This document shows positions 874 through 27,810 of a stretch of 64,000 nucleotides of DNA, one piece after another. Under the pieces are notes generated by a model that saw nothing but the letters and a program-made list of their open reading frames with translations, had not been told where the DNA came from and ran no database searches. Positions within the stretch are counted from its first letter, which is position 1, and each line of letters starts with the position of its first letter. The DNA is from an uncultured Candidatus Saccharibacteria bacterium (lineage in GTDB: Bacteria > Patescibacteriota > Minisyncoccia > Phycocordibacterales > EsbW-18), in NCBI GenBank assembly GCA_964520295.1, contig CAZFMQ010000003.1, forward strand, positions 1,060-65,059, written 5' to 3'. The position numbers were made by a program, and so were the translations under genes.

Positions 874-943
874 CGTGCGTGCATCATACCACGCTTAGTA
901 ACCGAACCACTCGATACACTGCACGGTCTGGTATGATTGCCGT

Positions 944-2183: not shown

Positions 2184-2189
2184 TTGATT

Positions 2190-3041: not shown

Positions 3042-4019
3042 ATGGATTTCACTCACGTTAAACCAAGCAAGAAAATCGTCGCACTCGGCATCATTGTGGG
3101 GGCAATTGTCATCGCAGTACTAGTCGGCAAGATTCAGTCCACACACATGGGCACTACACCGGTATTTACCGCCACTGCTCGTGAGCAGGTAGAAGAAACG
3201 GACACTGATGGTGATGGTTTGCCCGACTGGCAAGAAAAGTTGTGGGGGATGAGCGCTCACAATGCCGATTCAGATGGTGATGGGATCAATGATGCTGAAG
3301 AAGTAGCACGCACCCAGCAACAACAAATTGCCGACCGACAAACATTTGCCGACATCATTGATCCAACAACCAATCCTGAATGGAATTCAATGTCATACAC
3401 CGGACAAGTGAGCGGTTTAGTACTTTCTGACTACCTCACACTCAAACAGAGTGGAAAAACAATAACAGAGAATGACGTCATCGCGCTCATTGAAAATCTC
3501 CCGAGCTACGAGCAACCGGAGCGACCGCAGGCACGCCTCTATACGCGTGCAGACATCACCACCACAAATGAAACGGGTGATGGGGCATTGCGTGCGTACG
3601 GCAATAGTGTTGGCGCTGCACTCAAGCAAGGTGGTACTGCAAAAAATGAACTCTCTGTACTTGTTGCATTTATGGACAATGGGAATGACGCACAATTTGC
3701 ACAAGATGTACAAACAATCATTGCCCAATACACAAGCACCATACAAGCACTTCTTGTAGTACCGACCCCTCAAGATGTTGTAGAAGAGCACCTTGCAATC
3801 ATAAACGCACTCTCATTGCTCGTCAGCGATTTTCAATCATTTAATAGTTTCGGGAAAGATCCGTTCCTCGCGCTCTCAGTATTTCAATCATACAACAACG
3901 ACACTGCGGGACGCGGAACAGCATTTGATGCATTACGCACTGTTTTACGAAACGCCGACATCCAATACACGCAGACCGACCCGGGATTCATTTTATTTGA
4001 TACCATAACAACATCATGA
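3042..4019 (+). CDS. membrane-anchored protein with thrombospondin-type-3-like Ca-binding repeats
   Basis: N-terminal TM segment IVALGIIVGAIVIAVLV. Two DxDxDG repeats: DTDGDGLPDWQE and DSDGDGINDAEE. Confidence 0.5.
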   Translation: MDFTHVKPSKKIVALGIIVGAIVIAVLVGKIQSTHMGTTPVFTATAREQVEETDTDGDGLPDWQEKLWGMSAHNADSDGDGINDAEEVARTQQQQIADRQTFADIIDPTTNPEWNSMSYTGQVSGLVLSDYLTLKQSGKTITENDVIALIENLPSYEQPERPQARLYTRADITTTNETGDGALRAYGNSVGAALKQGGTAKNELSVLVAFMDNGNDAQFAQDVQTIIAQYTSTIQALLVVPTPQDVVEEHLAIINALSLLVSDFQSFNSFGKDPFLALSVFQSYNNDTAGRGTAFDALRTVLRNADIQYTQTDPGFILFDTITTS

Positions 4020-5791
4020 TTTTTGGTGCCCCAACAACAGTACGCAAGACACTCACCACACTGCTACTCAGTGTAGTCCTGGGTGGTGTCTTCCTGATGG
4101 TTAGTCCGACACCTCTCTATGCACAAACCGCAGAAACGCAAGATCCCTACTACGATGGACCGTCGTTTGATGAATTATTTGAAAAATATGCTGAACGCTG
4201 TGCAAAAGAGGTATTGATTGAGTTAATCATAAGCGCCATTGCATCTATGGCATCGGGCTCAGTGCCCACAAACGATTGGGCGACCAACATGAAAGAGGCG
4301 ATTGGTGACTGTTTTGTATCTGCAACTAAAAACGCACTCCTTGAATTAATTACGGGGCAAGCGGTGGGGTGGGCGCAAAAAGGGTATGGTGGTAATCCAG
4401 GATGGGTATCAAACATTGGTCAGTTTCTCGCCAATGTTGCAGACCAAGCCGCGGGTGCGTACATTGACCAGACAACCGCGGGGGATTTTCTGTGTTCACC
4501 ATTCAGATTGGACATTCAGTTAGCGCTTACGCAATATCACCGCGCAAGCTCTGGGAGAGGATTCGGTGTCGGTCAACAATCAAGCTGTACACTCTCAGGT
4601 ATTACCGACAATATCCAAGGGTTCTTGGATGGGGATTTCTATGCAGGTGGTTGGGATGCATGGATTGAAATGTCTGCAAATCCATACAACACACCATATG
4701 GTTCATACTTAGCACTTTCAGGTGGGTTAGAGCAAGCGGTTAAGGCAAAAAAAAGTGAGGCGGGCACAAAACTCGGTTTTGCTAGTGGCTATCTCAGCAA
4801 AGAAGTTCAACAGTGTTATGGCTATGATGCATCGGGCAACCGCACACCTATTGATGACTCCGAAATTGGGGGTGGTGAATATGAATCTTACGAATGTGAC
4901 GAACCACAGACAGTAACGCCGGGTGCGACCATCAAAGCAAACCTTGAAAGAACATTCGGAGCAAAGCTAGACAGCATCATAGAAGCAGATGAGATTAACG
5001 AAATCATTGATTTAGTGGCAGCATACTTATTGACTGAAGCACTAACGGATGAGGGAGGTCTTTCGGGTTATGATTACGCAGCACAGTTTGACCAGCCACT
5101 TCTTGATGACACGTGGGGAGATACTATTGATGATTTGCCACAAGGTGGAGGGGGTGGCCAGTGTACGCCAACAAGCCCTACACCTGGACGATCTGGTTCA
5201 CCTATCACCCACACACCAAATCCAGTTACAACGGTATTGGGTGCCAACATACCACTTCCATCAGGGAAACAGTGGGGCGCTTATGAAAGTGTTACTGCCA
5301 CGTTTGATGTAACCATTGGCGATTGGGGTAATGAAGGTGATCAATACAATATTTTCTGGCTCAACCGTGGAGGCGAGGCGTGGGGTGGTGGTGCAAACCG
5401 CGTTATAGAGCTAACAGCAGTACGTCGGGGCAACAACAATGTAAATCTCCGTGCAACAACACAAGTAGATAGCTGTGACAAAGGTCAAAAATCAGCAGAA
5501 ATTCCCCTTCAAACTGGGCAGACCTATAGTTTCACCGTTGACTATGAACCAAATGAGGGGCGCGTTACCATCACCGTACATCAAGCAAATGGCAATCAAA
5601 TATTCCGCACAGTACTTGTACCACCTGGGGTGCAGGAAAACCCACCAATAACCTTCCTCTCAAGTACGAATGCAGACAATCAAACAGGCTACTACTTACA
5701 ACTGGGGGCTGCGGGAAGTGTGCAGGGTAATGAGGGGCGCACCGAAGGATGGAGATGGAGTAAAATCAATATTTGGTTCAATCCATTATGA
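4016..5791 (+). CDS. large secreted hypothetical protein (591 aa)
   Basis: Signal peptide with ...LYAQTAE cleavage region. Long ORF with no recognisable catalytic motifs. Overlaps its neighbours by 4 nt, so it is operonic. Confidence 0.55.
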   Translation: MIFGAPTTVRKTLTTLLLSVVLGGVFLMVSPTPLYAQTAETQDPYYDGPSFDELFEKYAERCAKEVLIELIISAIASMASGSVPTNDWATNMKEAIGDCFVSATKNALLELITGQAVGWAQKGYGGNPGWVSNIGQFLANVADQAAGAYIDQTTAGDFLCSPFRLDIQLALTQYHRASSGRGFGVGQQSSCTLSGITDNIQGFLDGDFYAGGWDAWIEMSANPYNTPYGSYLALSGGLEQAVKAKKSEAGTKLGFASGYLSKEVQQCYGYDASGNRTPIDDSEIGGGEYESYECDEPQTVTPGATIKANLERTFGAKLDSIIEADEINEIIDLVAAYLLTEALTDEGGLSGYDYAAQFDQPLLDDTWGDTIDDLPQGGGGGQCTPTSPTPGRSGSPITHTPNPVTTVLGANIPLPSGKQWGAYESVTATFDVTIGDWGNEGDQYNIFWLNRGGEAWGGGANRVIELTAVRRGNNNVNLRATTQVDSCDKGQKSAEIPLQTGQTYSFTVDYEPNEGRVTITVHQANGNQIFRTVLVPPGVQENPPITFLSSTNADNQTGYYLQLGAAGSVQGNEGRTEGWRWSKINIWFNPL

Positions 5792-7869
5792 TCACATGGC
5801 TTAAAAAAAACCTGAAGTACATCATTCCAACAGTGTTTGTGGTGTTGTGTTTTGTGGTGCCACAATATACGGAAGCTGCCTGTTTTTGGCCAACAAAAGA
5901 ATGTATTCAGGGTTCTTTTGAGGAAGGTTTTATAACACTCTTGAATGGTTTTTTATATGTTTTTGGACTCCTACTCTCACTAGCAGGTCTTCTTCTTGAG
6001 GGTGTTATACAACTCACGATTGTAAATGCACGCAATATTATTATGGGGGATGGAACACTTCCAGGGCTCCAATCAATCGATCTCGCATGGCGCACTATTC
6101 GCGACGTCATCAACATCCTCTTTGTGTTTGTATTGCTCTATATCTCCATCAATATCATCCTTGATTCCTGGGGCAATAGTAGCTACAACAAATCACTTAT
6201 TCCAAAAGTGATTATCGCCGCACTCCTCATCAACTTCAGTTTATTTTTCACCAAAGTGGTATTTGATATCTCAAACGTCATCACATTTGAGTTTTATAAA
6301 ACAGCAGCAACACTGCATTCTGCACCAGCAGATCCAACTGATCCAAATTCAATACAGGTGCCCTTGACGGGCATCTCGGCGGCAATAATGGATGGGTTAC
6401 GCATGAGCGAGATTGTAAATGACGAGGGCAAAACAACGGAAACTGCGAAGGGGGTGTCGGGTACGTATGCTCTATTTGCGACCGTTTTGGGCATAATCAC
6501 TATTCTTGTTGCGACGTCTATTTTTATAGTCATGGCGGTCATGCTCCTTGCTCGCTTTATTGTATTTATTGCGTTGATGATTACATCGCCAATCGCATTT
6601 TTAGGCCCATTATTCCCCGCATTAAAGTCACACGCAGATCAATGGCAAAAAGCACTTATTAGTCAAGCAACCTTTGCACCGATCTTTTTCATAATGATAC
6701 TTGTGGTTGTCCTTATTATTTCAGATCCCAGTTTTGAAACAGCGCTACAAGTACAGACAGGCACCGGTGGTACAACTGCCGCAGGATATCTGGGGGGGTT
6801 ACTTAATGTTATCGTTCAATATGCAATCGTTGTTGGTTTATTGATTATCGCATTGGTTGTCTCGAAACAAACCGCAAACCAAACAGGCGATGCATTCAAA
6901 AACCTTGTGGGCAAGATTTCAGGTGGTGCCGCATTTGTGGGACGCAATACTGTTGGTCGCGCAGCAAACCGCGTCGTAAACTCTGCCGCAGTTGGCAACC
7001 TCACCAACAGCAATAATGCCCTGGCAAAAGGGGTGGGGCGCAGTTTGGTCTTTACGGGAGACAAAGTTCGCAGGTCTTCATTTAATGCACTGGGTGGTAA
7101 TCGCGTCGCAAATACACTGGGTGTGGAAACAAAGGAGTACGGTAAGGTAGGCACGCCTGGTGGTTTTGTACAGGCACGTGAGACATGGAATAAGAACCGT
7201 ACAGAGGAGGCCAAAAAGCGTGGTGGGTTGTACGCAGACACTAAAGCTCGAGCTACGCTACGCGATCAAATCAAGAATGCAAAAGATCAGGATGAGAAAC
7301 GAAGGGCACAAGATGCGCTTGCTTTGATGGATGGAAAATTAACACAGGCACAGAAAGATCTCTTAGAATCAAGTAAAAAACTTGACGCGACGCAGCGTGC
7401 AGAAGCTGAAGCAAAACAAAAAGCCATTGATGTTCAAAAGAAACAGACGGAGGAATTGGAGCGTGATATACAATTGGAAACAAATGATGAAAAACGAAAA
7501 CTTCTTGAGAGAAAGAAAGTGATTCTCGAGCGAGAAATCCAACTGGCTGAATCCGATGAAAACCTCAGTGCAGATCAAAAAGATTATCTCAAAAAGAAGA
7601 GTGGGGTTTCTGACATACGAAAAACAATGGAAGGTGCGAATAATCAGGCGGGTCGCGCAATTGGAGAAGAATTTGTAACTAGCCAGTTCCGTGGCAATCG
7701 TGCCGCCGCAGAAGAACTTTTGAAAGGAAAGGATCGGACTGATAAGGAAATAGCGGAGGAGGTGCGACGAGAAATGAAGAAACTTAACCGCAAAGCACGG
7801 ACACAAATAGAAAATGAAGAGCGACTCACAAACCCAAACCAGCCACCTAAACCAAATTTGCCTCAATAA
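5773..7869 (+). CDS. polytopic membrane protein with long charged coiled-coil C-terminus; VirB6/TrbL/PrgH-like by topology only
   Basis: N-terminal signal or TM segment followed by at least 6 hydrophobic helices over about 370 aa. The C-terminal 300 aa are a K/E/R/Q-rich coiled-coil. Sits in a cluster with VirB4 and PrgI-like genes. Confidence 0.45.
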   Translation: MVQSIMITWLKKNLKYIIPTVFVVLCFVVPQYTEAACFWPTKECIQGSFEEGFITLLNGFLYVFGLLLSLAGLLLEGVIQLTIVNARNIIMGDGTLPGLQSIDLAWRTIRDVINILFVFVLLYISINIILDSWGNSSYNKSLIPKVIIAALLINFSLFFTKVVFDISNVITFEFYKTAATLHSAPADPTDPNSIQVPLTGISAAIMDGLRMSEIVNDEGKTTETAKGVSGTYALFATVLGIITILVATSIFIVMAVMLLARFIVFIALMITSPIAFLGPLFPALKSHADQWQKALISQATFAPIFFIMILVVVLIISDPSFETALQVQTGTGGTTAAGYLGGLLNVIVQYAIVVGLLIIALVVSKQTANQTGDAFKNLVGKISGGAAFVGRNTVGRAANRVVNSAAVGNLTNSNNALAKGVGRSLVFTGDKVRRSSFNALGGNRVANTLGVETKEYGKVGTPGGFVQARETWNKNRTEEAKKRGGLYADTKARATLRDQIKNAKDQDEKRRAQDALALMDGKLTQAQKDLLESSKKLDATQRAEAEAKQKAIDVQKKQTEELERDIQLETNDEKRKLLERKKVILEREIQLAESDENLSADQKDYLKKKSGVSDIRKTMEGANNQAGRAIGEEFVTSQFRGNRAAAEELLKGKDRTDKEIAEEVRREMKKLNRKARTQIENEERLTNPNQPPKPNLPQ

Positions 7870-7881: not shown

Positions 7882-8571
7882 ATGCTTTCTGATTCATCAA
7901 AACAAGTAATTCGGGATCGGGTTGCAGCAATGCCTGAGCGCGTGCGCGAGGCATTGGAGCACATTGATACAGCGAAGTATCTCTCGGTTCTCGCAAGCAA
8001 ATACAATCTTCGCACCGATGAGGCACAAACTCTTGAAAATGAAATAATGATTGTGATGCTTGGTTTGGAAAAACCCGAAGCATTTATTCACCACCTCACA
8101 AAAGCGGGTATTTCAAAAGAAACCGCTGCAGGACTTGTGGCGGACGTGAATCGTGATGTGTTTGAAAAAATCAGACATGATTTGATGGAGTTTTTGCAAA
8201 AAACTGGTGCAGGCACTGATGAAGACATTGATATGAGTGAGTCGCCAATCTCTAAACTTGAACGTGAGGAGGCGGAGCAAGAAAAAGCGGAATCGTCTGA
8301 ACCAGCACCTGCAGTCATCATGCCGAAGGTGGAAGAAATCACACCAACGCATACAGAGGCGACACCTCCCGTTGAAAGCGTGGCTCCCACAGAACAAAGT
8401 GCACCAGCATCTGCTTCTGTAGCTTCTACACCCACACAGAACCAATCTCAAACAACGCCAGCACCAACACTTGCAAACGATTTTGCAAAAACACGCATGG
8501 AACAAACAGTACACATGCCCGACGCTAAAAAATATTCTGGCGTAGATCCGTATAGGGAACCAATACAGTAA
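7882..8571 (+). CDS. hypothetical protein with low-complexity P/T/S/A-rich C-terminus
   Basis: 229-aa ORF immediately after the VirB6-like gene. No motif recognised. Confidence 0.45.
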   Translation: MLSDSSKQVIRDRVAAMPERVREALEHIDTAKYLSVLASKYNLRTDEAQTLENEIMIVMLGLEKPEAFIHHLTKAGISKETAAGLVADVNRDVFEKIRHDLMEFLQKTGAGTDEDIDMSESPISKLEREEAEQEKAESSEPAPAVIMPKVEEITPTHTEATPPVESVAPTEQSAPASASVASTPTQNQSQTTPAPTLANDFAKTRMEQTVHMPDAKKYSGVDPYREPIQ

Positions 8572-8645
8572 AGGGGGTGGGGGAAGCGCCAATAGCGCTT
8601 CGGGCGCTCATGCTACATGCTATGTGATTTCTGGTATGTGAACCA

Positions 8646-9101
8646 CTACTGTTGCTGTTCTGAATACAATGAGTCGTGCACATCCAAACTCCACGCGAGA
8701 TCACGAAGCTTACTGTCAGAAAGACGTGGCACCGTCACTGCCGTAGCCGCACCAGTCGTTTCCTGAGCACTACTTGTTGCTTTGCGAGGTTCCTTTTTCC
8801 AAATATACAGTTTCTTAGAGAGGAAAAATTTTAGTGCCGTTTCAAGAAAGCCCACGAACGGGCGGTCGTTTACCTTATAGAAGGCGAGCGCAAAACCGAG
8901 GCCCGCAACACCTGCAATCAGAAGAACGGCAAGTATTTTTGGAATAAAAAACCAAATAACAACAGACAAACCTGCCGCACCCGCAAGATAGATAAACTGT
9001 TTGAACGTCAGCGGTCCAAATACCTTGTCCTCTATATCAATGAATTGTGGTACTTCAAATTTCACGGTAGTAAAAGGTATATACATCATAGCACGTAGCA
9101 C
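8646..9101 (-). CDS. PrgI/VirB3-like small T4SS membrane protein
   Basis: EVPQFIDIEDKVFGPLTFKQFIYLAGAAGLSVVIWFF followed by a second TM, which is the PrgI-family pattern. The call is from memory of the family, not from a search. Confidence 0.55.
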   Translation of the reverse strand: MLRAMMYIPFTTVKFEVPQFIDIEDKVFGPLTFKQFIYLAGAAGLSVVIWFFIPKILAVLLIAGVAGLGFALAFYKVNDRPFVGFLETALKFFLSKKLYIWKKEPRKATSSAQETTGAATAVTVPRLSDSKLRDLAWSLDVHDSLYSEQQQ

Positions 9102-9228
9102 ATAGCAAAAAACACTTAGGGTTCAAACCTTGAATGCTTTAGAGACCGAATCCCCAATTGGGGATTCGGTCTCTTTGTTACACAGTACACGCTACACACT
9201 ATATGTTCCGTGATACAATATACGCTGT

Positions 9229-9888
9229 ATGGCAGCGCCTAAGGCACAAAGTACACAAGCATTTGTTCCTATTAAAGAAATCCGCAGCGGCATCGTCATT
9301 CTCAAAGACGGTTCTATGCGCTCGGTACTCTTGTGCTCCTCACTAAACTTCGCACTCAAATCAGAAGATGAACAGCAGGCAATCATTATGCAGTTCCAAA
9401 ACCTGCTGAACTCGGTGGAATTTCCTATACAAATCATGATTCAGTCGCGCGAGCTGGACATCCGCCCCTACATCGCGCTCCTTGAAGCACAAATAAAAGA
9501 GCAAACCCTTGAACTCATTAAAATACAAACGCGCGAATACATTGAGTTTGTGCGCGGATTTACCGAACAACAGAACATCATGTCTAAGAACTTTTTTGTA
9601 GTAGTACCGTATTCACCCGCGGTTATTTCTGCTGCACAGGGTGGTGTCAAAGGCGCCCTCGGCAACATACTTCCTGGAAAACAAAAAGATAATCCTGAAC
9701 AAAAAATAATTGCATTTGAAGAACACCGCAGCCAGTTAGAACAACGCATCGGCATCGTGTCGCAGAACCTTGCGCGAACCGGTATTCGTGCGGTGCAGTT
9801 GCAAACAGAGGAGTTGGTGGAGTTATACTATAAATTATTCAACCCGGGTGATTCTGAAAAACCAATTGCACTCTCTGCCATCAAATAA
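9229..9888 (+). CDS. VirB4/TrbE-family N-terminal domain fragment; first half of a split VirB4
   Basis: VPIKEIRSGIVILKDGSMRSVLLCSSLNFALKSEDEQQAIIMQFQNLLNSVEFPIQIMIQSR matches the conserved N-terminus of Gram-positive-type VirB4 (TrsE/PrgJ/TcpF). Ends at TAA 9886-9888, 7 nt before the ATG of the next ORF, which is in a different frame. Confidence 0.65.
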   Translation: MAAPKAQSTQAFVPIKEIRSGIVILKDGSMRSVLLCSSLNFALKSEDEQQAIIMQFQNLLNSVEFPIQIMIQSRELDIRPYIALLEAQIKEQTLELIKIQTREYIEFVRGFTEQQNIMSKNFFVVVPYSPAVISAAQGGVKGALGNILPGKQKDNPEQKIIAFEEHRSQLEQRIGIVSQNLARTGIRAVQLQTEELVELYYKLFNPGDSEKPIALSAIK

Positions 9889-9895
9889 CGAACGT

Positions 9896-11845
9896 ATGGG
9901 TATTCTTGATTTTATCAGAGGAAAAAAGAGTAGCGAGGCACCAGAGATTTCTCCTGTGCTTCCAAAAGATATTTACGAAGCAGGCGTCCTTGAACTGCAA
10001 GATATTATTGCGCCATCGGCACTCAAAGTAACGCCGCGCGCACTCAATCTTGGTGATAAAGTGGTACGTACATTCTTTGCTATTTCGTATCCACGCTTTC
10101 TGCCCGACAACTGGCTCTCTCCTATTATCAATATGGATAAGGTGTTTGATATTTCTATCTCCATCATTCCTGTAGATACTGCGCAAGTGCTCAAAGAGTT
10201 TCGTAAGCGTGTAGCGGAAGTACAAAGCCAAATCAATATCCGTGAACAACGTGGTTTAGTACGTGATCCAATGCTGGATTCTGCCTACCAAAACCTTGAA
10301 AACCTTCGTGACCAACTTCAGCAGGCAACAGAAAAGCTCTTTGATGTGGGACTCTATATCACCATTTATGCCAGCCAGGAGGAGGAGCTCAATAAAATTG
10401 AAAGTGAGATTCGCTCTGTGCTTGAAAGTCGCCTCATCTACATCAAACCAGCACTCTTTCAACAAGAGCAGGGGTTCCGCAGTGTACTGCCAATACAACA
10501 AGATGAGCTTGGTGTGCACAGCAAACTCAACACCTCGCCACTTTCATCATTTTTCCCGTTTGTATCGTTTGACCTCACCTCCACACAGGGTATTTTGTAC
10601 GGTATCAACCGCCACAACTCTGGCCTCATCATCTTTGACCGATTCTCTATGCCGAACTACAACTCGGTGATGTTTGCTACCTCCGGTTCGGGTAAATCAT
10701 TTGCAACAAAGCTAGAAATTATACGCACGCTCATGTTTGATACCGAAGTTATTGTTATTGACCCAGAGCGTGAGTACGAACGCTTGGCAGAAGCAATGGG
10801 CGGACGTTACTTCAATATCTCACTCACATCAGAACACCACATCAACCCATTTGAGCTCCCACCTATTCGTGAAGATGAAACACCCGCAAACGTATTGCGC
10901 TCACAGATTGTGACACTTGTGGGGCTGTTCCGCATTATGTTTGGTGGTCTCACCCCCGAAGAAGATGCCATCATTGACCGTGCCATCACCGAAACATACG
11001 CACTCAAAGATATCACGGGCGACCATGACTTCACCGGCATTGAACCACCACTGCTTGCCGACTTTGAATTGGTACTCACCGGTATGGAAGGAGGGGAGTC
11101 ACTGGTACAACGCTTAACAAAGTACACGAAGGGTACATGGTCTGGGTTTATCAACCGACCAACAAACGTAGACATCAATAAAAAGTTTGTGGTGTTCTCG
11201 GTACGTGACATGGAAGATGAACTCAAACCGGTTGCCATGTATCTCATCACCAACTACATTTGGGGCACTATTCGCCGCACACTCAAAAAACGATTGCTCG
11301 TGGTGGATGAGGCGTGGTGGATGATGAAAGCAGAGGATACCGCATCGTTGCTCTTCGGCCTGGCGAAGCGCGGACGCAAGTACTACCTTGGTATTGCAAC
11401 GATTACACAAGACGTGAACGACTTCTTGCGCTCACCATATGGATTGCCAATTATCACCAACTCATCCATTCAATTACTCTTGAAGCAGTCGCCGTCAACA
11501 ATTGACTTGGTGCAACAAACATTCAATCTTACCGACGAAGAAAAGTATCTTTTGCTGGAGTCGGGGTTGGGAGAGGGAATCTTCTTTGCAGGTCTCAAGC
11601 ACGTTGCCGTCAAAGTGTATGCTTCATACACCGAAGAACAGCTCATTACCTCTGACCCATCACAACTTATAGCGCTCAAAAAGGCAAAACAGGAGCTCAA
11701 AGACGCCCAAGATCAAGGTGATGCATCAGGTTTGCAGGAAAAAATCTACTCAAAAAGCCCGATAGGGGGTGATTCCGTAGCATCTCAGCAATCCCCACAA
11801 AATAGCGGAATTGCAGGAAATGTTGAAATGAAAAATGTACAATAG
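9896..11845 (+). CDS. virB4: VirB4-family type IV secretion ATPase: CagE/TrbE domain plus ATPase domain
   Basis: Walker A FATSGSGKSFATK and Walker B LLVVDEAWWMM. Upstream CagE_TrbE_VirB-like segment ...RTFFAISYPRFLPDNWLSPII.... The start is taken at ATG 9896 (MGILDFIRG). The track start at 9770 is an upstream in-frame extension. Confidence 0.85.
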   Translation: MGILDFIRGKKSSEAPEISPVLPKDIYEAGVLELQDIIAPSALKVTPRALNLGDKVVRTFFAISYPRFLPDNWLSPIINMDKVFDISISIIPVDTAQVLKEFRKRVAEVQSQINIREQRGLVRDPMLDSAYQNLENLRDQLQQATEKLFDVGLYITIYASQEEELNKIESEIRSVLESRLIYIKPALFQQEQGFRSVLPIQQDELGVHSKLNTSPLSSFFPFVSFDLTSTQGILYGINRHNSGLIIFDRFSMPNYNSVMFATSGSGKSFATKLEIIRTLMFDTEVIVIDPEREYERLAEAMGGRYFNISLTSEHHINPFELPPIREDETPANVLRSQIVTLVGLFRIMFGGLTPEEDAIIDRAITETYALKDITGDHDFTGIEPPLLADFELVLTGMEGGESLVQRLTKYTKGTWSGFINRPTNVDINKKFVVFSVRDMEDELKPVAMYLITNYIWGTIRRTLKKRLLVVDEAWWMMKAEDTASLLFGLAKRGRKYYLGIATITQDVNDFLRSPYGLPIITNSSIQLLLKQSPSTIDLVQQTFNLTDEEKYLLLESGLGEGIFFAGLKHVAVKVYASYTEEQLITSDPSQLIALKKAKQELKDAQDQGDASGLQEKIYSKSPIGGDSVASQQSPQNSGIAGNVEMKNVQ

Positions 11846-11850
11846 AGTAC

Positions 11851-12342
11851 ATGGATGAACAGAATCCAGGTACAGGAATGCAAAACGTGGAGGGTTTTGC
11901 AAATGACATTGATGCGGCAGGGCAGGGTGGTGATAGTGCACCAAAAGAACTTATCTCTAATACCCAAAAAGTATTTTTAGTGGGAACCGCCATTCTTTTT
12001 GACCTCTTGAGCATTGTACTACCCGCAGTAATGTCTATTGTTGCCGCTGTTGTTTTTGGTATTTGGTTTTTGATACTTAAATTGCCACTTTTAAGCCCGA
12101 AAAAACTAGTAACACAGGCCCTTGCCCTGTTTGGAGAAAGCGTACCTGCTATATCCATACTGCCGTTTATTACGATAGGTGTTATGCTTATGATTAGTAT
12201 GGAGAAAATAAAAGAAAAAACCGGTGTTGATGCCTTCGCACTTGTATCAAAGGGCAGACCATCTGCATCGGGCACTGCAAGTACGGCAGCAAAACAAGCG
12301 GTACGACCATCGATGAACGACATGCTTCCCTCAACATCGTAA
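11851..12342 (+). CDS. small multi-TM membrane protein
   Basis: 3-4 hydrophobic helices, for example LVGTAILFDLLSIVLPAVMSIVAAVVFGIWFLIL. The overlapping minus-strand ORF 11697..12323 looks like an antisense artefact. Confidence 0.4.
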   Translation: MDEQNPGTGMQNVEGFANDIDAAGQGGDSAPKELISNTQKVFLVGTAILFDLLSIVLPAVMSIVAAVVFGIWFLILKLPLLSPKKLVTQALALFGESVPAISILPFITIGVMLMISMEKIKEKTGVDAFALVSKGRPSASGTASTAAKQAVRPSMNDMLPSTS

Positions 12343-12344
12343 GT

Positions 12345-13055
12345 ATGAAGAAAGTACTCATTACAGCATTCTTTTTCTCTCTTTTTGTTCCGCTGTATTC
12401 ATATGCGCAAATAAATGTGGCGACACAAAATGTTACCGCAACCGTAGAACTCATGTGGGAGTCACATGCGTATATACCACCATTCTATACAGGACGTGCG
12501 CTCTACCCCGTTGGTGCTGAAGTAACGATGTATGCACTCCCGCCCGCAGATCTTGGTGCACCGAACACACTAACCTACACATGGAAAAAAGACAGTGTCG
12601 TGCAAGGATCACTCTCGGGTATTGGCAAACGCTCGTACACATTCTCGGGCTCACAGTTCGGTGATTCACCACTTATTGCCGTTGAAGTATCCAACGGCAC
12701 ACAAACAGCCGTGGGTGCCGTGCGCCTCGCACAAGCAGACCCTGTCATACGACAGTACCCCAACACACCACTGGGTGGTATTCTTTTTGATCACGCACTT
12801 CCCAATGCCCTTACCACACAAGAAGAAACATTTGGTGTAGAGGCATATCCGTACTTTTTTTCAGCCTCATCACGAACCGATATTCCACTTCGCTACACGT
12901 GGAATATCGGGGGATCGACAGTCGCTGATGCAACAGGACCTTCCATTGCCATTACATCAGAACAACCGACACGCATCAATGCACAGCTAACCATCAACAA
13001 CACGGCGCAGATATTGCAACGTGCCACAAAAGCACTGACCATCACCTTTGAATAA
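12345..13055 (+). CDS. secreted hypothetical protein
   Basis: Signal peptide MKKVLITAFFFSLFVPLYSYAQ. Operonic with the VirB4 gene. Confidence 0.5.
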   Translation: MKKVLITAFFFSLFVPLYSYAQINVATQNVTATVELMWESHAYIPPFYTGRALYPVGAEVTMYALPPADLGAPNTLTYTWKKDSVVQGSLSGIGKRSYTFSGSQFGDSPLIAVEVSNGTQTAVGAVRLAQADPVIRQYPNTPLGGILFDHALPNALTTQEETFGVEAYPYFFSASSRTDIPLRYTWNIGGSTVADATGPSIAITSEQPTRINAQLTINNTAQILQRATKALTITFE

Positions 13056-13056
13056 T

Positions 13057-13989
13057 ATGAAACGCGCTCTCTTATTTTCAACTATTATTGTTCTCACACT
13101 CGTTGTATTGCCATTATTTGTAGAGGCGCAAACATACGAGTTTCTTGTAAAGGATTTACCATTTATTACAGAAGCTGAAGATGAGGGTCTTCCAGGACTT
13201 TTGAATGCGTTCTTTAAGTTTGGATTGGCGATTGCCGTAACACTCTCGGTGGTGATGTTTACCTACAACGGCGTGCAGTACATGGTATCTGACGTGGTAA
13301 AAAATAAAAGTAAGGCAGTTGGTGGTATGCAAGCGTCTATATGGGGACTGGTGATGGCATTTGCGGCATGGCTTGTATTGCGCACCATCAATCCCGCGCT
13401 TGTTGATTTTCAATTGTTTAAAACAATCCAAGAAGTGCGGGATCGTTTGAACACAAACATTGAAGAGCAGACCACCCCTGGACCGACTGCAACCACCACA
13501 CCAGGAGAAATGCCTGAGTCGGAGCGTGCTGCCAGAGAAAAATTAAAAGCTTTAGGAATTGGGGTCAATAGAGAAAATCATTGTGAAACAGCAACGAGTA
13601 GGAACTGTACAAATGTTGCTAATATGCCAGCAGCAATGGTTAGTTTATTGAGTAGAATGACGCAATTTGGCAAATGTCCAGAGAGCGGCCCATTCACTAA
13701 TTGTCCCATAACAATTACAGGGGGAACGGAGATGTTCCCACACAGAACACATGGTCCGGGCAAACCAGTGGTCGACCTCAGAAAAAATATTGCGGTTGAA
13801 AAATGGTTGCAGGCATATGCAACAAAATGTCCCGCACAATACGATGGTGGTGATGTGTGGATTGTAAAGAACGCATTGCAACAATATTTTTGGGATGAAC
13901 AAGGTGGAGATCCTCACTGGCATGCATGTATGGGTAGCACATTTTGTGGCAACATTGGTTCAGTATGCGAAACCGTTCATGAAAACTAA
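13057..13989 (+). CDS. pilin-like two-TM N-terminal domain (VirB2/TrbC-like topology) fused to a Cys-rich C-terminal domain
   Basis: Signal peptide, then two hydrophobic helices (LLNAFFKFGLAIAVTLSVVMFTY and ASIWGLVMAFAAWLVLRTINPAL). C-terminal domain carries 9 Cys and several His. ATG at 13057 is preferred over TTG at 13048. Confidence 0.45.
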   Translation: MKRALLFSTIIVLTLVVLPLFVEAQTYEFLVKDLPFITEAEDEGLPGLLNAFFKFGLAIAVTLSVVMFTYNGVQYMVSDVVKNKSKAVGGMQASIWGLVMAFAAWLVLRTINPALVDFQLFKTIQEVRDRLNTNIEEQTTPGPTATTTPGEMPESERAAREKLKALGIGVNRENHCETATSRNCTNVANMPAAMVSLLSRMTQFGKCPESGPFTNCPITITGGTEMFPHRTHGPGKPVVDLRKNIAVEKWLQAYATKCPAQYDGGDVWIVKNALQQYFWDEQGGDPHWHACMGSTFCGNIGSVCETVHEN

Positions 13990-13991: not shown

Positions 13992-15263
13992 ATGCGTAGA
14001 ACACTTACCATTCTCACAATCATTATTGGTATCATCGCTGTCATTGCGACAGTGTGGTGGTTTGTGGCACACCGCACATCTGAAATACCATTAGACGTTA
14101 CCACTACTCCTGATCGCACATTCAACCCATTCGGATTGTTTAGTGGAGACGACACTACCACTACAACCGGCACAGGCACGGACACGCCGTTATTCCCTGA
14201 TGTACCAATGACAGTGGAACGCCCGTCACTTTTCAAAATCACCGAAGGTCCTGTTGCGGGTGTAACCACCTATGCGACAACCAACGGCACCACAACAGAA
14301 CACTTCGTCCGCTACGTAGAGCGTAATTCCGGCAACATCTACGACTACTCGCTTTCAACAGGACGTGAAGTACGTGTATCCAACACCACCATTCCACGTG
14401 TGCATGAAGCACTCTTTGGTAACAGTGGGGCAACGGTTGTATATCGTCGCCTACAAGACGATGGAGAAACTGTTGAAACCTATCTCGGCTCAATTTCATC
14501 GGCAACCACCACTGAAACTCGACTCTCGGGTTCATTCCTTCCTGAAAATATTCTCACTATCGCACTACACCCAGACGATAACCGCGTATTTTATACACTA
14601 CGTTCAGGAGAAAATGGTGCCATCGGCTATGTGGTATCGGGTAGCGCAACAACAAATGTATTTTCACATCCATTCTACCAGTGGCAGGCACACTGGAGCG
14701 GTAACACCGTACTTCTTTCTACCGCACCATCATACGGAGTAGGGGGTAGCGCATTCACACTCAACACAAACACGGGCGCACTCGCACGCTTTGCGACAGG
14801 ACCAGGATTGACCGTACTACCAAGTGGCAGTGTCAATACACACCTTGTCGGTACTGCAAATAACAACCGATTAAATCTTTCAACGTACTCTGCAACAACG
14901 AACGCCTTCACTAATTTGTCTATGAGTGCACTCCCTGAAAAATGTGTGTGGGCAAGCGGTACAACGCTGTACTGTGCTGTTCCTTCAAACCCAGCGACCG
15001 ACATGCCTGATATTTGGTACCAAGGTGCAATCGCGCTTGCCGACACGTTGTGGAAAATTGACACCACCTCAGGAATAACTGAATACATCGTTGACCCCAA
15101 CCGAACAATCTCTATTGGTGTTGATATGATTGACCTTGCGCTTTCGCAAGACAGCAACAATCTAGTATTCATCAACAAGCGTGATCGCTCTCTGTGGGTT
15201 GCTGACCTTGCACTACTTACCCTTGAAAACAACCAATCAAATACCGTTGAGGGGGCCTTCTAG
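13992..15263 (+). CDS. membrane-anchored beta-rich protein, possibly a beta-propeller
   Basis: N-terminal TM LTILTIIIGIIAVIATVWWFV. T/S/G-rich repetitive beta-strand-like sequence. Last gene of the plus-strand cluster. Confidence 0.45.
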   Translation: MRRTLTILTIIIGIIAVIATVWWFVAHRTSEIPLDVTTTPDRTFNPFGLFSGDDTTTTTGTGTDTPLFPDVPMTVERPSLFKITEGPVAGVTTYATTNGTTTEHFVRYVERNSGNIYDYSLSTGREVRVSNTTIPRVHEALFGNSGATVVYRRLQDDGETVETYLGSISSATTTETRLSGSFLPENILTIALHPDDNRVFYTLRSGENGAIGYVVSGSATTNVFSHPFYQWQAHWSGNTVLLSTAPSYGVGGSAFTLNTNTGALARFATGPGLTVLPSGSVNTHLVGTANNNRLNLSTYSATTNAFTNLSMSALPEKCVWASGTTLYCAVPSNPATDMPDIWYQGAIALADTLWKIDTTSGITEYIVDPNRTISIGVDMIDLALSQDSNNLVFINKRDRSLWVADLALLTLENNQSNTVEGAF

Positions 15264-15979
15264 TGTTCCTCGCGATGCTTACGCAAAAACGCTTCTTGTG
15301 CAATAGAGAAGAGGTTGCTTGTTGTCCAATACAAACCCGCAGATGCAGGAAGTGCTGCAGCAATAACAACAATAATCACAGGAAATACGTATTTCATTTG
15401 GAATGACATACTTTTCTGGAATGACGCACCGAACGAATCAGTGTTACCTGATGGTTGTGGCATACGCATAAGGTACGCTTGGAAAAATTGTGACACTCCT
15501 GCAAGAACCGCGATAGGTAAACTTTTTTGTGCCACATCAATAAAACCCATAAAAATAGTGCTTATTTCGGGAGGTACTGATACAAAAGAGTATAGAAAAT
15601 CGGGATTTATGACCGGAAATCCATCGCGTACGAGTGTGAAGTACAATCCAAAAATAATAGGGATCTGTACAAACATAAAGGCAATGCTTGCGAACGGATT
15701 TATTTTATATTCACGATACAACGCCAACATTTTTTGTGCCTGTTGTTGACGATCGTTTTTAAACTTTTCACGAATCTCTTCCATTTTTGGTTGTACCTGT
15801 TGCATCACCATTTGGGTTTTCAATGCACGCTGTGCAAGAGGAAAGAGCACGAGACGAACCAATATAGTAAACGCAATAACAATAATACCGAGATCCGCCC
15901 ATGGCAGAAGGTGCATGAGACCAACAACGCCGTTGTAGAGTGGCTGTGTAACAAGTGTAAAGAAAATTCCGTGTGACAT
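15260..15979 (-). CDS. yidC: membrane protein insertase YidC/Oxa1, short form
   Basis: Multi-TM protein directly downstream of rnpA. The start is taken at MSHGIFF (15979). The track start at 16018 would overlap rnpA. Confidence 0.8.
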   Translation of the reverse strand: MSHGIFFTLVTQPLYNGVVGLMHLLPWADLGIIVIAFTILVRLVLFPLAQRALKTQMVMQQVQPKMEEIREKFKNDRQQQAQKMLALYREYKINPFASIAFMFVQIPIIFGLYFTLVRDGFPVINPDFLYSFVSVPPEISTIFMGFIDVAQKSLPIAVLAGVSQFFQAYLMRMPQPSGNTDSFGASFQKSMSFQMKYVFPVIIVVIAAALPASAGLYWTTSNLFSIAQEAFLRKHREEH

Positions 15980-15986
15980 ATGAACG

Positions 15987-16334
15987 TTATTGTATATCTG
16001 TCTGTCTATCCTCGCCACTAGACAGTAGTGTTTTAATTTCTTCTTTCAAGATATCACTAGGCGGGAGCGTTTTTTGTAACATAATAAAAATAAAGGTGCC
16101 GTGTATGTTTTTTTCTTTATTATATATTTCTCCAATAGCTGTATATACTTTTCGACGTAATGTATTACGTGCAACCGCGCTCGGTGCGACTTTTTTACTT
16201 ACCGTTACCGCACATCGAAAATGGGTGGTTGAGGGGATACTACGTACAATAAAGTGTTTTGAGCGCAAAACAACGCCGTCTTTAAAAACGGCGTTGAACT
16301 GTGTTGTGGTGATGCGGTGTTTTTTAGGAAGCAT
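15987..16334 (-). CDS. rnpA: ribonuclease P protein component
   Basis: 115-aa basic protein, MLPKKHRITTTQFNAVFKDG..., in the canonical rpmH-rnpA-yidC context. Confidence 0.85.
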   Translation of the reverse strand: MLPKKHRITTTQFNAVFKDGVVLRSKHFIVRSIPSTTHFRCAVTVSKKVAPSAVARNTLRRKVYTAIGEIYNKEKNIHGTFIFIMLQKTLPPSDILKEEIKTLLSSGEDRQTDIQ

Positions 16335-16350: not shown

Positions 16351-16485
16351 TTACACAGCAAGGCGTGCGCGGCCTTTTGAGCGGCGGCGCTTAATCATCT
16401 TGCGCCCCCCTGCGGTTTTGGTACGAACGAGAAAACCGTGTGTTTTTGCTCGTTTTCGCTTCTTTGGCTGGTTTGTTCGCTTCAT
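16351..16485 (-). CDS. rpmH: 50S ribosomal protein L34
   Basis: Hand translation gives [44 protein letters not shown] (44 aa). Too short for the 60-aa ORF track. Confidence 0.9.
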
Positions 16486-16604
16486 ATAATTTGACTTTTT
16501 TAACGGTTTGTTATGTGTTGTTAGATTGCACCATCCGTTGTCCCCACATTATAAACATAGTTTTCTCCTTTTCTCAAGGTTGTACCTTTTCAAATACGTT
16601 TATA

Positions 16605-18005
16605 ATGAGCAGACAAACTTCCTTCACCATGTCCACCACCACAGCCCAAACACCAACAGATACAAAAGATTTATGGATGCAGGTATTAGGTGCTGTTGAA
16701 CTTCTTGTTTCTAAGGCAATCTTTAAGACGTGGTTTAAAGATACTCATATTGTAAAAGTAGAGGACGGTGTGGTGTTTGTGGGTGTTCCAAATGTTTTTA
16801 CAAAGGATTTGATCACGGAAAAGTACCATAAAATGGTGTTAAAGGCGCTCCGTGATATTTCATATACCATCAGATCGGTTGAATACATGATTTCTACAAA
16901 ACCGCCTTCTGATACAAAAATCCTTTCATATCAATCAACTCATCAACACGATGGTGGGGAAGAACTACCACTTCGTGATTTATATATCAATAAAAGCGAT
17001 AATTTGAACCCTCGGTATACGTTTGATTCTTTTGTGGTTGGTTCATTTAATGAGCTGGCGTACGCAGCAGCACAAGCGATTTTAGAGCGTCCGGGTGCAC
17101 GTTATAATCCATTCTTTGTGTATGGACAAACAGGGCATGGAAAAACACACCTTATCCAAGCAATTGGTAATGAAGTAAAAAAGAAGTTTCCTGATAAAAA
17201 GGTTTTTTATGTTACATCAGAACGGTTTGCTCAAGATCTTGTGAATTCTATTCAAACGAATGCAGTTAATAATTTTAAAGAACGTTATCGAAAATATGAT
17301 GTACTCATTATGGATGATGTACAGTTCCTTTCTAATAAAGAAAAAACACAAGAAGAGTTGTTTCATCTTTTTAATGAAATTTTTGATAGAAATGGACAAA
17401 TTATCTTTTCATCAGATAGACATCCAAATTACATCCAAAGCTTAGCAGATCGCCTAAAATCGCGTTTTAACGCTGGTATGACGGTGGATATTCCTCCTCC
17501 TGACTTTGAATCACGACTCGCAATCGTCAAATCAAAAACAAATGAGAATAATGTAGTACTCTCAGAGGAAATACTTTCATATATAGCAAATAGTATTGAA
17601 GGTAATATTCGTGAAATTGAAGGTGCATTAAATTCTATTTTGTGCCAAATCCAACTTAAAAAACGTGATCTTAATCTTAATGAGGTGCGGGATATTATAA
17701 AAAACAGCATCAAACCTAAAAAAATGGTTTCAGTAAAAGATGTTGTTAAGATTGTTGCTGATTTTTATAACTTAGATGAAGAAAATATCTATAAAAAGAG
17801 TCGTAAAAAAGAGGTAGTGAAGCCACGACAGGTTATTATGTACATCCTTAGAGAAGATTTTGCATTACCTTATCCAACAATTGGTCAAAAACTTGGTGGT
17901 CGTGATCACACAACAGTTATTCACTCATACGAAAAAATAAAAGAGGATTTAAAAAATGATCATCAATTAGAACAAGAATTAACTCAAGTACGTGCATTAC
18001 TATAG
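16605..18005 (+). CDS. dnaA: chromosomal replication initiator DnaA
   Basis: AAA+ motifs GQTGHGKTHL and LIMDDVQFL, and a C-terminal HTH. The start is taken at ATG 16605 (MSRQTSF). The track start at 16440 overlaps rpmH. Confidence 0.95.
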   Translation: MSRQTSFTMSTTTAQTPTDTKDLWMQVLGAVELLVSKAIFKTWFKDTHIVKVEDGVVFVGVPNVFTKDLITEKYHKMVLKALRDISYTIRSVEYMISTKPPSDTKILSYQSTHQHDGGEELPLRDLYINKSDNLNPRYTFDSFVVGSFNELAYAAAQAILERPGARYNPFFVYGQTGHGKTHLIQAIGNEVKKKFPDKKVFYVTSERFAQDLVNSIQTNAVNNFKERYRKYDVLIMDDVQFLSNKEKTQEELFHLFNEIFDRNGQIIFSSDRHPNYIQSLADRLKSRFNAGMTVDIPPPDFESRLAIVKSKTNENNVVLSEEILSYIANSIEGNIREIEGALNSILCQIQLKKRDLNLNEVRDIIKNSIKPKKMVSVKDVVKIVADFYNLDEENIYKKSRKKEVVKPRQVIMYILREDFALPYPTIGQKLGGRDHTTVIHSYEKIKEDLKNDHQLEQELTQVRALL

Positions 18006-25736: not shown

Positions 25737-26021
25737 ATGGTCGTGCTAGGATATGTACGCTCTTTGAGAATATCGCACACACACAGGCAGAGGCGCAAAA
25801 GCACCCCCGCCTGATTTATTTTTGGAAAAATAGAAACACACGGAGGCGAGAGGCCTCTAAGTAAGCGTCGTGGTCCTCACGCATAAGGTAGGTGAGGACC
25901 TATTGGTTGTCCCGATTATGTCGAGGCAACGAACAGTATCCTTAACAAACCTCATGGACTTACTTAGAGACCTCTCTTCTTTTGCAACTATTCCCAATTT
26001 TACGGTTTTTTCAGAACTTTG

Positions 26022-26056
26022 AAACCCCCGCTTCACACTGGAGCGGGGGTTTTGTG
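26022..26056 (+). terminator. plus-strand rho-independent terminator with no upstream plus-strand gene
   Basis: aacccccgc-ttcacactgga-gcgggggtt hairpin followed by ttgtgtt. The complementary strand has no U-tract. Confidence 0.5.
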
Positions 26057-27802: not shown

Positions 27803-27810
27803 GATTTAAA

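Follow-up and report, generated by a model that had tools for sequence, protein, structure and literature searches.

The VirB4 of this Paceibacteria-type (Campbellbacteria-like) Patescibacterium belongs to a chromosomal, origin-proximal T4SS cluster, with ksgA, yidC, dnaA and dnaN around it, and it is encoded by two intact reading frames, ORF1 and ORF2 (Table 1). We refer to the whole 64,000-nt stretch of DNA that was analysed, from contig CAZFMQ010000003.1 of an uncultured Candidatus Saccharibacteria bacterium, as the window. The initial annotation had described the two frames as parted by a TAA stop and 7 nt, with a +1 change of frame, and its coordinates were exact: division by 3 leaves a remainder of 1 for 9229 and of 2 for 9896, which puts ORF2 in the +1 frame. 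The two products add up to 868 aa, in agreement with the 870 aa or so that it had given.

Table 1. Features of the two-gene virB4 locus and its surroundings (positions in the window).
Feature	Position	Strand	Details
prgI (VirB3-like membrane protein)	8646..9101	-	Pfam PrgI, 48.8 bits (cut-off 27)
Extended -10-like box, TGaTACAAT	9211..9219	+	ends 9 nt before the ORF1 ATG
ORF1, TraC-like / TrsD-like stand-alone subunit	9229..9888	+	219 aa; ATG 9229, TAA 9886-9888; NCBIfam N-terminal VirB4 matches
Intergenic spacer, cgaacgt	9889..9895	+	7 nt; no Shine-Dalgarno-like motif
ORF2, VirB4 ATPase subunit (rest of N-terminal domain and C-terminal P-loop ATPase)	9896..11845	+	649 aa; ATG 9896, TAG 11843-11845
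ORF2 N-terminal conserved peptide, MGILDFIRGKK...	9896..9940	+	residue frequencies from 72 sequences
Walker A, ATSGSGKS	10676..10699	+	about ORF2 residues 261-268
Walker B, LLVVDE	11294..11311	+	ORF2 residues 467-472
T4SS_pilin domain	within 13048-13989		Pfam

Association with a T4SS is seen in the nearby PrgI and pilin genes and in synteny that is conserved across the related loci. PrgI is the expected membrane anchor partner of VirB4. The usual order is prgI-ORF1-ORF2, with prgI on the same strand and upstream of ORF1 in 77 of the 80 related loci; it is inverted in the window and in two relatives, L002 and L003 (3 of 81 sequences). The 698-aa product of 5773-7869, a tentative VirB6 candidate, had no family match. 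No relaxase was found among the window ORFs that we scanned.

The translation of ORF1 contains VPIKEIRSGIVILKDGS...LNFALKSEDEQ, and it matches N-terminal portions of VirB4 models: positions 100-233 of 894 in NCBIfam VirB4_plasma (E 1.9e-15), 2-119 of 752 in the CD1110 family model and 3-131 of 792 in TIGR00929. There were 7830 homologue matches, and the best 120 of these were all 209-228 aa long. In a library clustered at 50% identity we obtained 2485 matches; among the best 150, 149 were short proteins (146-443 aa) and one was fused. Precomputed annotations assign PF26593, a family named 'TraC-like', to a protein that is 100% identical to ORF1 (P0001) and to all 120 listed homologues. Our own hmmscan of the ORFs did not return PF26593, a model that may not be contained in the local Pfam copy. 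Against the NCBIfam TrsD model (NF041427) ORF1 scored 17.6 bits (E 0.0025) and did not reach the 200-bit cut-off, and hhalign of the ORF1 family with TrsD of pSK41 gave a probability of 1.9% (E 0.026), which is too weak for TrsD membership. By these scores ORF1 is, at best, a remote TrsD homologue that falls outside the NF041427 subfamily.

ORF2 exceeds the cut-off of the CD1110-family VirB4 equivalog NF045971 (367.5 bits against 325) and covers profile positions 185-732 of 752. Pfam P-loop_TraG, AAA_10 and DUF87 all match it, and the solved VirB4 C-terminal domain 4AG5 matches residues 230-586 (E 2e-42). On sequence grounds, ORF2 is a VirB4 P-loop ATPase (MPF_FATA, CD1110 family). We placed the numbering of Walker A by hand from an alignment in which GSGKS starts at residue 264; a motif regular expression had missed this site, where the first residue is A and not G. 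The NCBIfam and Pfam matches bear out the earlier assignment of ORF1 as the VirB4 N-terminus and of ORF2 as the ATPase with its Walker A and B motifs. The CagE/TrbE domain that had also been assigned to ORF2 is a sub-threshold match only, with Pfam CagE_TrbE_VirB at 17.3 bits and a cut-off of 21. Of 8000 homologue matches to ORF2, the best 120 are all between 599 and 703 aa. ORF2 does not carry a complete VirB4 N-terminal domain on its one polypeptide, and about the first 200 residues of that domain are missing from it.

The missing part is encoded by ORF1. In a sister group, Ca. Colwellbacteria and relatives, VirB4 is a colinear fused protein of about 790 aa. Residues 5-211 of ORF1 match residues 4-214 of one such protein (P0292), and ORF2 residues 29-168 match its residues 225-364. 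The AF2 model of P0292 superposes on full-length TrwK/VirB4 with a TM-score of 0.62 (E 5e-25), and the ATPase core aligns directly, with ORF2 residues 256-560 against TrwK 446-741. We conclude that the two products together are colinear with full-length VirB4 and that the N-terminal domain is complete only when both are combined. Fold and domain order are the same as in full-length VirB4, both R388 TrwK (PDB 7O43 and 8RTD) and the fused Colwellbacteria form, but there VirB4 is one polypeptide whereas in the window it is two. The junction in P0292 (residues 211-230) has a pLDDT of 55-59 and is flanked by confident blocks. Its linker is 10 aa long, whereas the unmatched stretch in the window consists of the 8 C-terminal residues of ORF1 and the 28 N-terminal residues of ORF2. 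We discarded a MAFFT alignment that mixed P0292 with separate ORF1-type and ORF2-type proteins because the ORF1-type rows were smeared over the full length, and used an alignment of the fused proteins instead. On whether the split is older than its arrival in Patescibacteria, and whether the Colwellbacteria fusion is secondary, a neighbour-joining tree built from clamped distances offers a hint only.

For ORF1 on its own, kinship to the solved VirB4 is visible by fold comparison only, and there on a predicted structure. The AF2 model of ORF1 is of moderate confidence (pLDDT 65.7), and its top 14 PDB matches are all R388 TrwK/VirB4, with TM-scores of about 0.45 and an rmsd of 7-10 A. A search of the PDB sequences with the ORF1-family profile returned chance coiled-coil matches only.

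We then come to the question of whether the break is real. In all 80 of the GTDB species-representative genomes that we fetched, ORF1 ends in a stop codon (TAA in 57, TAG in 13 and TGA in 10) and ORF2 follows with its own ATG. What varies is the length of the spacer and the relative frame. Six loci have a 4-nt ATGA overlap in place of a spacer; in the others the gap measures 1-9 nt (54 loci), 12-30 nt (6 loci) or 60-496 nt (14 loci). ORF2 lies in frame +1 relative to ORF1 in 33 loci, +2 in 29 and 0 in 18. In four genomes (L024, L041, L045 and L046) a gene for a 23S_rRNA_IVP four-helix bundle (PF05635) sits between the two halves, a match that we confirmed for the L041 and L045 copies, and a fifth (L070) has possible remnants of such a gene. 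The break point, the stop and the ATG are conserved, and the spacer and the frame are not.

Seen in the window only, a stop, a +1 frame change and two halves with the combined length of a normal VirB4 are also what one would expect of a frameshift pseudogene, or of an assembly or sequencing indel that broke a continuous virB4. We regard this as extremely improbable. The identical break, with its stop and ATG, recurs in every one of the 80 other species, whose assemblies are independent, and since frames and spacers differ from species to species, no single indel restores the fusion. The gene inserted between the halves in some species argues against it too, as does the conserved N-terminal peptide that ORF2 has of its own. 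In comparison with the closest relative (L001), dN is 0.095 for ORF1, with dS saturated, and 0.098 for ORF2, with dS above 1.7 or saturated across the two genes. These ratios, far below 1 for both halves, point to strong purifying selection on each, and a dN of about 0.1 together with a break that is universal in 80 species is not the pattern of a pseudogene. The 'aaaaa run' that had been proposed as the site of an indel is at 9924-9929, inside ORF2 and downstream of its ATG, and is irrelevant to the junction.

A programmed +1 ribosomal frameshift or read-through of the stop, giving a single VirB4 of about 870 aa, has two observations in its favor: the ORF2 frame in the window stays open over the 126 nt that precede its ATG (with a TTG at 9770), and L001 has both ORFs in one frame, parted by TAA and 3 nt only. 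Even so, we give it next to no chance. A relative frame that takes all three values does not fit a programmed shift, and in many loci the nearest in-frame stop of the ORF2 frame is within about 20 nt of the ATG, therefore neither an overlap zone nor a shifty site is conserved. The ORF2 ATG is kept in 80 of 80 genomes, and this mechanism could not bridge a spacer as long as 496 nt or an inserted gene. With a frame that varies, spacers that run from -4 to 496 nt and no overlap zone, the locus does not resemble prfB or dnaX. The initial annotation had listed a genuine two-gene split, a frameshift pseudogene, a programmed frameshift and an assembly indel as alternatives, and had suggested looking in orthologues for the same two ORFs with a conserved start; the 80 genomes were decisive for the first and against the other three.

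Expression of the pair was considered from 72 sequences (71 related loci and the window). A hexamer TA[TC]A[AC]T ends 2-12 nt before the ORF1 ATG in 25 of the 72, where the background frequency predicts 0.8, and in 24 of those 25 the distance is 6-9 nt. We read the box in the window as a putative promoter for a leaderless or near-leaderless ORF1-ORF2 mRNA. A consensus promoter and terminator scan of 8500-12400 detected more promoter-like sites in shuffled sequence than in the real one, and we left it out of the evidence; in that region it returned no convincing terminator between ORF1 and ORF2. A Shine-Dalgarno-like 4-mer upstream of ORF2 is present in 1 of the 72 sequences, and the 7-nt spacer is probably a site of termination-reinitiation coupling. 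Such coupling is not obligatory in the family, because termination-reinitiation is not available to loci in which 100-500 nt or an inserted gene parts the two ORFs. The same 72 sequences give the N-terminal peptide of ORF2 a family consensus of M-[GSA]-[ILF]-F-D-F-L-K-K-K. This peptide has no counterpart in P0292, the sole fused relative that we compared, where the local match starts at ORF2 residue 29.

Our explanation is that this is a stable two-gene VirB4, and we hold it, with its steps of assembly in trans, co-transcription and coupling, to be very likely. The products of ORF1 and ORF2 would assemble non-covalently into a VirB4-like protomer, in which ORF1 would supply the part that lies with VirB3 (here PrgI) at the membrane in the R388 structure entries and ORF2 would supply the motor. 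The two genes would be co-transcribed from the promoter that abuts the ORF1 ATG. With no Shine-Dalgarno and a start 7 nt past the ORF1 stop, ORF2 would depend on termination-reinitiation for its translation, and this would tend to favor matched amounts of both subunits.

It could instead be that ORF1 is an autonomous T4SS accessory derived from the VirB4 N-terminus, for example an adaptor or regulator with other partners, which stands outside the ATPase protomer. Quinonero-Coronel et al. 2025 (Microb Genom, PMC12102498) list TrsD as a component in its own right and assign no function to it, and the same paper reports that in Gracilibacteria the TrsD homologues are away from virB4. Some ORF1 homologues have long low-complexity C-terminal tails, reaching 296-443 aa in total, and a promoter of its own seems to precede ORF1 in many loci. 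Against this are the tight adjacency of the two genes, which in 60 of 80 loci overlap or lie no more than 9 nt apart, and their strict colinearity with both TrwK and the fused Colwellbacteria VirB4. A whole clade keeps both parts as one polypeptide, and ORF2 alone lacks the start of the domain. We think an autonomous ORF1 quite unlikely, and we keep to the two-subunit protomer.

A further reading takes the split to be functionally exploited and not neutral. The N-terminal subunit would be made from a leaderless transcript, would dock on the ATPase via the peptide M-G/S/A-I/L-F-D-F-L-K-K-K with which the split-form ATPase starts, and would link PrgI/VirB3 to the motor as a separable adaptor. 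In this way assembly or exchange could be regulated in a T4SS that is essential to epibiotic bacteria and is not conjugative, and the fused Colwellbacteria form would be a secondary re-fusion. We did not find this reading in the published literature that we searched. As a joint proposal it is tentative, and we consider it less probable than not by a good distance.

We recommend that both genes of the locus be annotated as real, one for a TraC-like/TrsD-like N-terminal subunit and the other for a VirB4 ATPase subunit, with no flag for a disrupted or frameshifted virB4. That the motor would consist of two polypeptides matters for structural and genetic studies of the Patescibacteria T4SS.

Split pairs of the ORF1/ORF2 type are found outside of Patescibacteria as well, on plasmids of Firmicutes. 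In pSK41, trsD (25886-26569, 227 aa) is followed after a 14-nt gap by the gene for the ATPase TrsE (26584-28602, 672 aa, DUF87/VirB4-like), and TrsE residue 36 aligns with ORF2 residue 36. The TrsD/TraD and TrsE/TraE pairs of the staphylococcal conjugative plasmids pSK41 and pGO1 (MPF_FATA, pGO1 subclass) have the same layout, with the PrgI-like TrsC first; the start of the ATPase is homologous and the break point is as in the window, so that ORF1 and ORF2 have the TrsD-type layout. TrsD of pSK41, however, has marginal sequence similarity to ORF1, and pSK41 is a conjugative plasmid with relaxases, while the cluster in the window is chromosomal.

Clearer sequence matches came from two other plasmids. 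A tblastn search with ORF1 found a Pontibacillus plasmid (E 1e-18) and C. botulinum pCBG (E 4e-8). In pCBG the order is PrgI, a TraC-family protein of 257 aa and an ATPase of 620 aa; taken with Pontibacillus sp. ALD_SL1, it is PrgI, an N-terminal-domain protein of 257-274 aa and a CD1110-family ATPase of about 620 aa, the start of its gene sharing 11 nt with the gene before. These pairs differ from ours in being plasmid-borne and in having an N-terminal protein that is 40-55 aa longer, with 24-29% identity to ORF1.

The closest comparison is with the Patescibacteria themselves, and the two-gene arrangement is real, ordinary and already known from the literature and the domain databases. The conserved arrangement is published in PMC12102498, and the Pfam family has a name. 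That paper reports that TrsD homologues, remotely homologous to the VirB4 N-terminus, adjoin virB4 in 1664 cases across Patescibacteria, that the cluster lies near dnaA, dnaN and ksgA, that essentiality is listed for the TrsD homologue of S. epibionticum ML1 and, with reference to Wang et al. 2023, that the T4SS is essential for epibiotic growth. The statement that TrsD resembles the VirB4 N-terminus rests on the paper's citation of Guglielmini et al. 2014, because the main text of the latter does not mention TrsD. A search of the literature returned no paper with the phrase 'split VirB4', and the parts of PMC12102498 that we drew on neither present the pair as a split VirB4 nor include the fused Colwellbacteria form. 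What we add is modest: Colwellbacteria have VirB4 in a naturally fused form, pSK41 shares the break point, and the break falls some 200 residues into the N-terminal domain, in a linker of lower confidence. As far as that paper's account of the system goes, the window has this gene pair within the same phylum, namely a TrsD homologue and an MPF_FATA-like VirB4, with PrgI/VirB3, putative VirB6-like and VirB2-like pilin genes nearby, a position close to dnaA, dnaN and ksgA, and no relaxase among the ORFs scanned; nothing substantive sets the two apart, and the inverted prgI is the unusual feature.

The VirB4 of the window is encoded by two adjacent genes, ORF1 and ORF2, and the initial annotation had both at exactly the right positions. 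In profile searches, ORF1 matched VirB4 models in their N-terminal part only: NCBIfam VirB4_plasma at profile positions 100-233 of 894 (E 1.9e-15), the CD1110 family profile at positions 2-119 of 752 and TIGR00929 at positions 3-131 of 792. Precomputed annotations also place Pfam PF26593 "TraC-like" on ORF1. ORF2 matched the CD1110-family VirB4 equivalog over positions 185-732 with 367.5 bits, above the curated cut-off of 325, and contains the Pfam domains P-loop_TraG, AAA_10 and DUF87, a Walker A motif (ATSGSGKS, about residues 261-268) and a Walker B motif (LLVVDE, residues 467-472). The Pfam CagE_TrbE_VirB match that had been reported earlier was below threshold.

Coordinates of the two VirB4 genes and of the features discussed with them
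Feature	Position	Strand	Remarks
ksgA (RrnaAD)	window 944-1741		
Long ORF	window 4016-5791		591 aa
Long ORF	window 5773-7869		698 aa
Imperfect inverted repeat	window 8618-8638 / 9087-9107		21 nt, 76% complementary
prgI (VirB3-like)	window 8646-9101	-	
Palindrome	window 9141-9174		34 nt, perfect, 0 bases between arms
-10-like box	window 9211-9219		TGaTACAAT, upstream of ORF1
ORF1	window ATG 9229 to TAA 9886-9888	+	219 aa
Spacer	window 9889-9895		cgaacgt, 7 nt
ORF2	window ATG 9896 to TAG 11843-11845	+	649 aa; +1 frame relative to ORF1
Pilin-domain protein	window 13048-13989		313 aa; T4SS_pilin at residues 46-113
yidC	window 15260-16018		
dnaA	window 16440-18005		
dnaN	window 18230-19330		
23S_rRNA_IVP-type gene	L001 (closest relative) 3523-3927		between prgI and ORF1
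ORF at the equivalent prgI-ORF1 site	L004 (related locus) 3525-3926	-	133 aa
Fused VirB4 gene	L084 (locus of the fused form) 544-2937		
Fused VirB4 proteins of the Ca. Colwellbacteria-named clade	P0292, P0391-P0509		

The break had been put down to a genuine two-gene split, a pseudogene, a programmed frameshift or an assembly indel. We located the ORF1-ORF2 junction in 80 GTDB species-representative genomes, labelled Campbellbacteria, Kaiserbacteria, Adlerbacteria, Taylorbacteria, Wolfebacteria, Zambryskibacteria and others. In all 80, ORF1 ends in a stop codon, and an ATG that matches the start of the ORF2 protein in the alignment comes next. Six loci have a 4-nt ATGA overlap; the others have spacers of 1-9 nt (54 loci), 12-30 nt (6) or 60-496 nt (14). 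The three possible relative frames occur in 33, 29 and 18 loci, and the ORF1 stop is TAA in 57, TAG in 13 and TGA in 10. A stop and a start that are kept, while frame and spacing are not, are the signature of two genes. Neither an assembly or sequencing indel, nor a pseudogene, nor a programmed frameshift is compatible with a conserved stop and start at variable frame and spacing, and only the genuine split survives. It is further supported by an unrelated gene found between the halves in some relatives, and by a dN of ~0.1 for both ORFs against the closest relative, at saturated synonymous sites. The split VirB4 is thus confirmed as a genuine two-gene arrangement.

The inserted gene encodes a 23S_rRNA_IVP four-helix bundle (PF05635). 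It lies between the ORF1 and ORF2 homologues in L024, L041, L045 and L046, and a degraded copy apparently does so in L070; only the L041 and L045 copies were confirmed as Pfam matches, and the other copies were assigned by sequence resemblance. The L001 gene between prgI and ORF1 was also assigned by resemblance, and L004 has a minus-strand ORF at the equivalent site. That 23S_rRNA_IVP genes turn up in different intergenic regions of this T4SS operon suggests a small family that repeatedly lands in this locus.

Each half of VirB4 is widespread as a separate protein. ORF1 has 7830 homologues in a database clustered at 90%, and the best 120 (62-100% identical) are all 209-228 aa long. ORF2 has at least 8000, and the best 120 are all 599-703 aa, with none near 870 aa. 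An exhaustive search of 50%-identity representatives gave 2485 ORF1 matches; one of the best 150 is fused (797 aa), and the other 149 are short proteins of 146-443 aa. Some stand-alone ORF1 homologues (P0260, P0297 and P0309, 356-443 aa) have long low-complexity C-terminal tails rich in Pro/Ala/Gln/Thr, which come after a conserved ...NPG/E..E(K/R) motif near the ORF1 C-terminal end.

In a related clade of Patescibacteria, which the records call Ca. Colwellbacteria, VirB4 is fused. For one of these proteins, P0292, 118 of the best 120 matches are 775-807 aa long and have both the TraC-like and the ATPase domains; the two matches of ~600 aa (P0409 and P0505) could be either split members or truncated gene calls. 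The gene order shows the same origin-proximal synteny, with prgI and virB4 followed by yidC, rnpA, dnaA and dnaN. Residues 5-211 of ORF1 align to P0292 4-214 and residues 29-168 of ORF2 to P0292 225-364, so the two window genes together run colinear with a single VirB4. A linker of 10 aa joins the parts in the fused form, and its split counterpart is 8 C-terminal residues of ORF1 plus 28 N-terminal residues of ORF2. In a rough neighbour-joining tree built from the ORF1 domain (146 sequences, 210 columns, split Firmicutes outgroups), the fused clade fell among split forms in 92 of 100 bootstraps, a hint that the Colwellbacteria fusion may be secondary.

The VirB4 of plasmid R388 is TrwK. ORF1 was modelled by AF2 at moderate confidence (pLDDT 65.7), and the best 14 PDB matches of the model are all R388 TrwK/VirB4 (probability 0.98-1.00); the next ones are unrelated structures with far worse E-values, of at least 0.23. 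Over residues 230-586, ORF2 aligns with 4AG5, the crystallised C-terminal domain of a VirB4 (E 2e-42). Since ORF2 residues 256-560 match TrwK 446-741, ORF2 starts at about TrwK residue 190. By these alignments, the break is inside the VirB4 N-terminal domain and not at the boundary between that domain and the ATPase. The P0292 model (pLDDT 72) superposes on full-length TrwK with a TM of 0.62 over about 830 alignment columns, and at the junction (residues 211-230) its pLDDT falls to 55-59, flanked by blocks of 83-93.

ORF1 and ORF2 are both intact and conserved, and purifying selection acts on both; jointly they are colinear with a full VirB4, and they adjoin prgI. We infer that their products would assemble in trans into a VirB4-like protomer, where ORF1 would supply the part that the R388 structure entries place together with VirB3 at the membrane, and ORF2 would supply the motor. 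PDB 8RTB lists TrwM/VirB3 and TrwK/VirB4 within one inner-membrane protomer. In the split form (window 9896-9940 and L001-L080), a hydrophobic-basic peptide, M-[GSA]-[ILF]-F-D-F-L-K-K-K, is conserved at the start of ORF2. The local match to fused P0292 starts at ORF2 residue 29 and leaves this peptide unmatched; the peptide may serve for docking or membrane binding.

Expression of the two genes looks coordinated, judging from the sequence. SD-like motifs precede ORF2 in 1 of 72 sequences and the genes overlap or are at most 9 nt apart in 60 of 80 loci, which fits termination-reinitiation coupling, although the relatives with long spacers or an inserted gene mean that coupling is not obligatory. 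Upstream of ORF1, SD-like motifs are rare (7/72). We looked for a -10-like hexamer, TA[TC]A[AC]T, in the 45-60 nt upstream of ORF1 in the window, L002-L046 and other loci. In 25 of the 72 sequences the hexamer ends 2-12 nt ahead of the ATG (6-9 nt in 24 of the 25), where chance would give 0.8. This enrichment suggests a leaderless or near-leaderless mRNA beginning at ORF1; together with the scarcity of SD-like motifs, it suggests that the TraC-like gene of these Patescibacteria is translated in a leaderless or near-leaderless way.

The prgI gene is upstream of ORF1 on the same strand in 77 of the 80 related loci; in the window, and likewise in L002 and L003, it is inverted relative to ORF1 and ORF2. 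The imperfect inverted repeat flanks prgI almost exactly and has a 9-nt perfect core (TGCTATGTG / CACATAGCA), although a 9-nt match is near chance for a 1100-nt region. The divergent prgI-ORF1 intergenic region also holds the perfect palindrome (AGAGACCGAATCCCCAA / TTGGGGATTCGGTCTCT), followed by TTGTT. It may represent an operator, a hairpin or a relic of the inversion; in L002 and L003, the 45 nt preceding ORF1 show no evident counterpart.

The T4SS cluster is on the chromosome, with ksgA on one side and yidC/dnaA/dnaN on the other, so it adjoins the replication origin. Among the window ORFs scanned, we recognised no relaxase and no VirD4-type coupling protein, and the 591-aa and 698-aa ORFs had no Pfam match. 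The pilin-domain protein is unusually long for a VirB2-like pilin; after the domain it has a Cys/His-rich C-terminal region of ~170 aa without family assignment. Quinonero-Coronel et al. 2025 (PMC12102498) describe TrsD homologues, remotely related to the VirB4 N-terminus, beside virB4 in 1664 cases across Patescibacteria. They report that the clusters are often near dnaA, dnaN, rnpA, ksgA and rpmH, and they list the TrsD copy of S. epibionticum ML1 as essential. The window follows the origin-proximal pattern that this paper describes for Paceibacteria, and because its gene order fits that description, the two-gene arrangement has already been described and is ordinary for the phylum. Where the paper discusses TrsD, it treats it as a separate component of unknown function and not as half of a split VirB4 (PMC12102498).

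Split pairs also occur on Firmicutes plasmids. ORF1 is not a member of the NCBIfam staphylococcal TrsD/TraD subfamily (17.6 bits against a cut-off of 200), and hhalign gave a probability of 1.9% for the ORF1 family with staphylococcal TrsD. On staphylococcal pSK41, a PrgI-like TrsC is followed by TrsD (227 aa) and, after a gap of 14 nt, by TrsE (672 aa). On C. botulinum pCBG and a Pontibacillus plasmid, PrgI is accompanied by an N-terminal-domain protein of 257-274 aa and an ATPase of ~620 aa. TrsE residue 36 aligned with ORF2 residue 36, so the ATPase subunits of the window and pSK41 start at the same homologous position. Beyond the literature, our analysis makes small additions: statistics on the junction, a clade with a natural fusion, the placing of the break in a lower-confidence linker, the conserved N-terminal peptide of split-form ORF2, the likely leaderless ORF1 start and the break point shared with pSK41 TrsD/TrsE.
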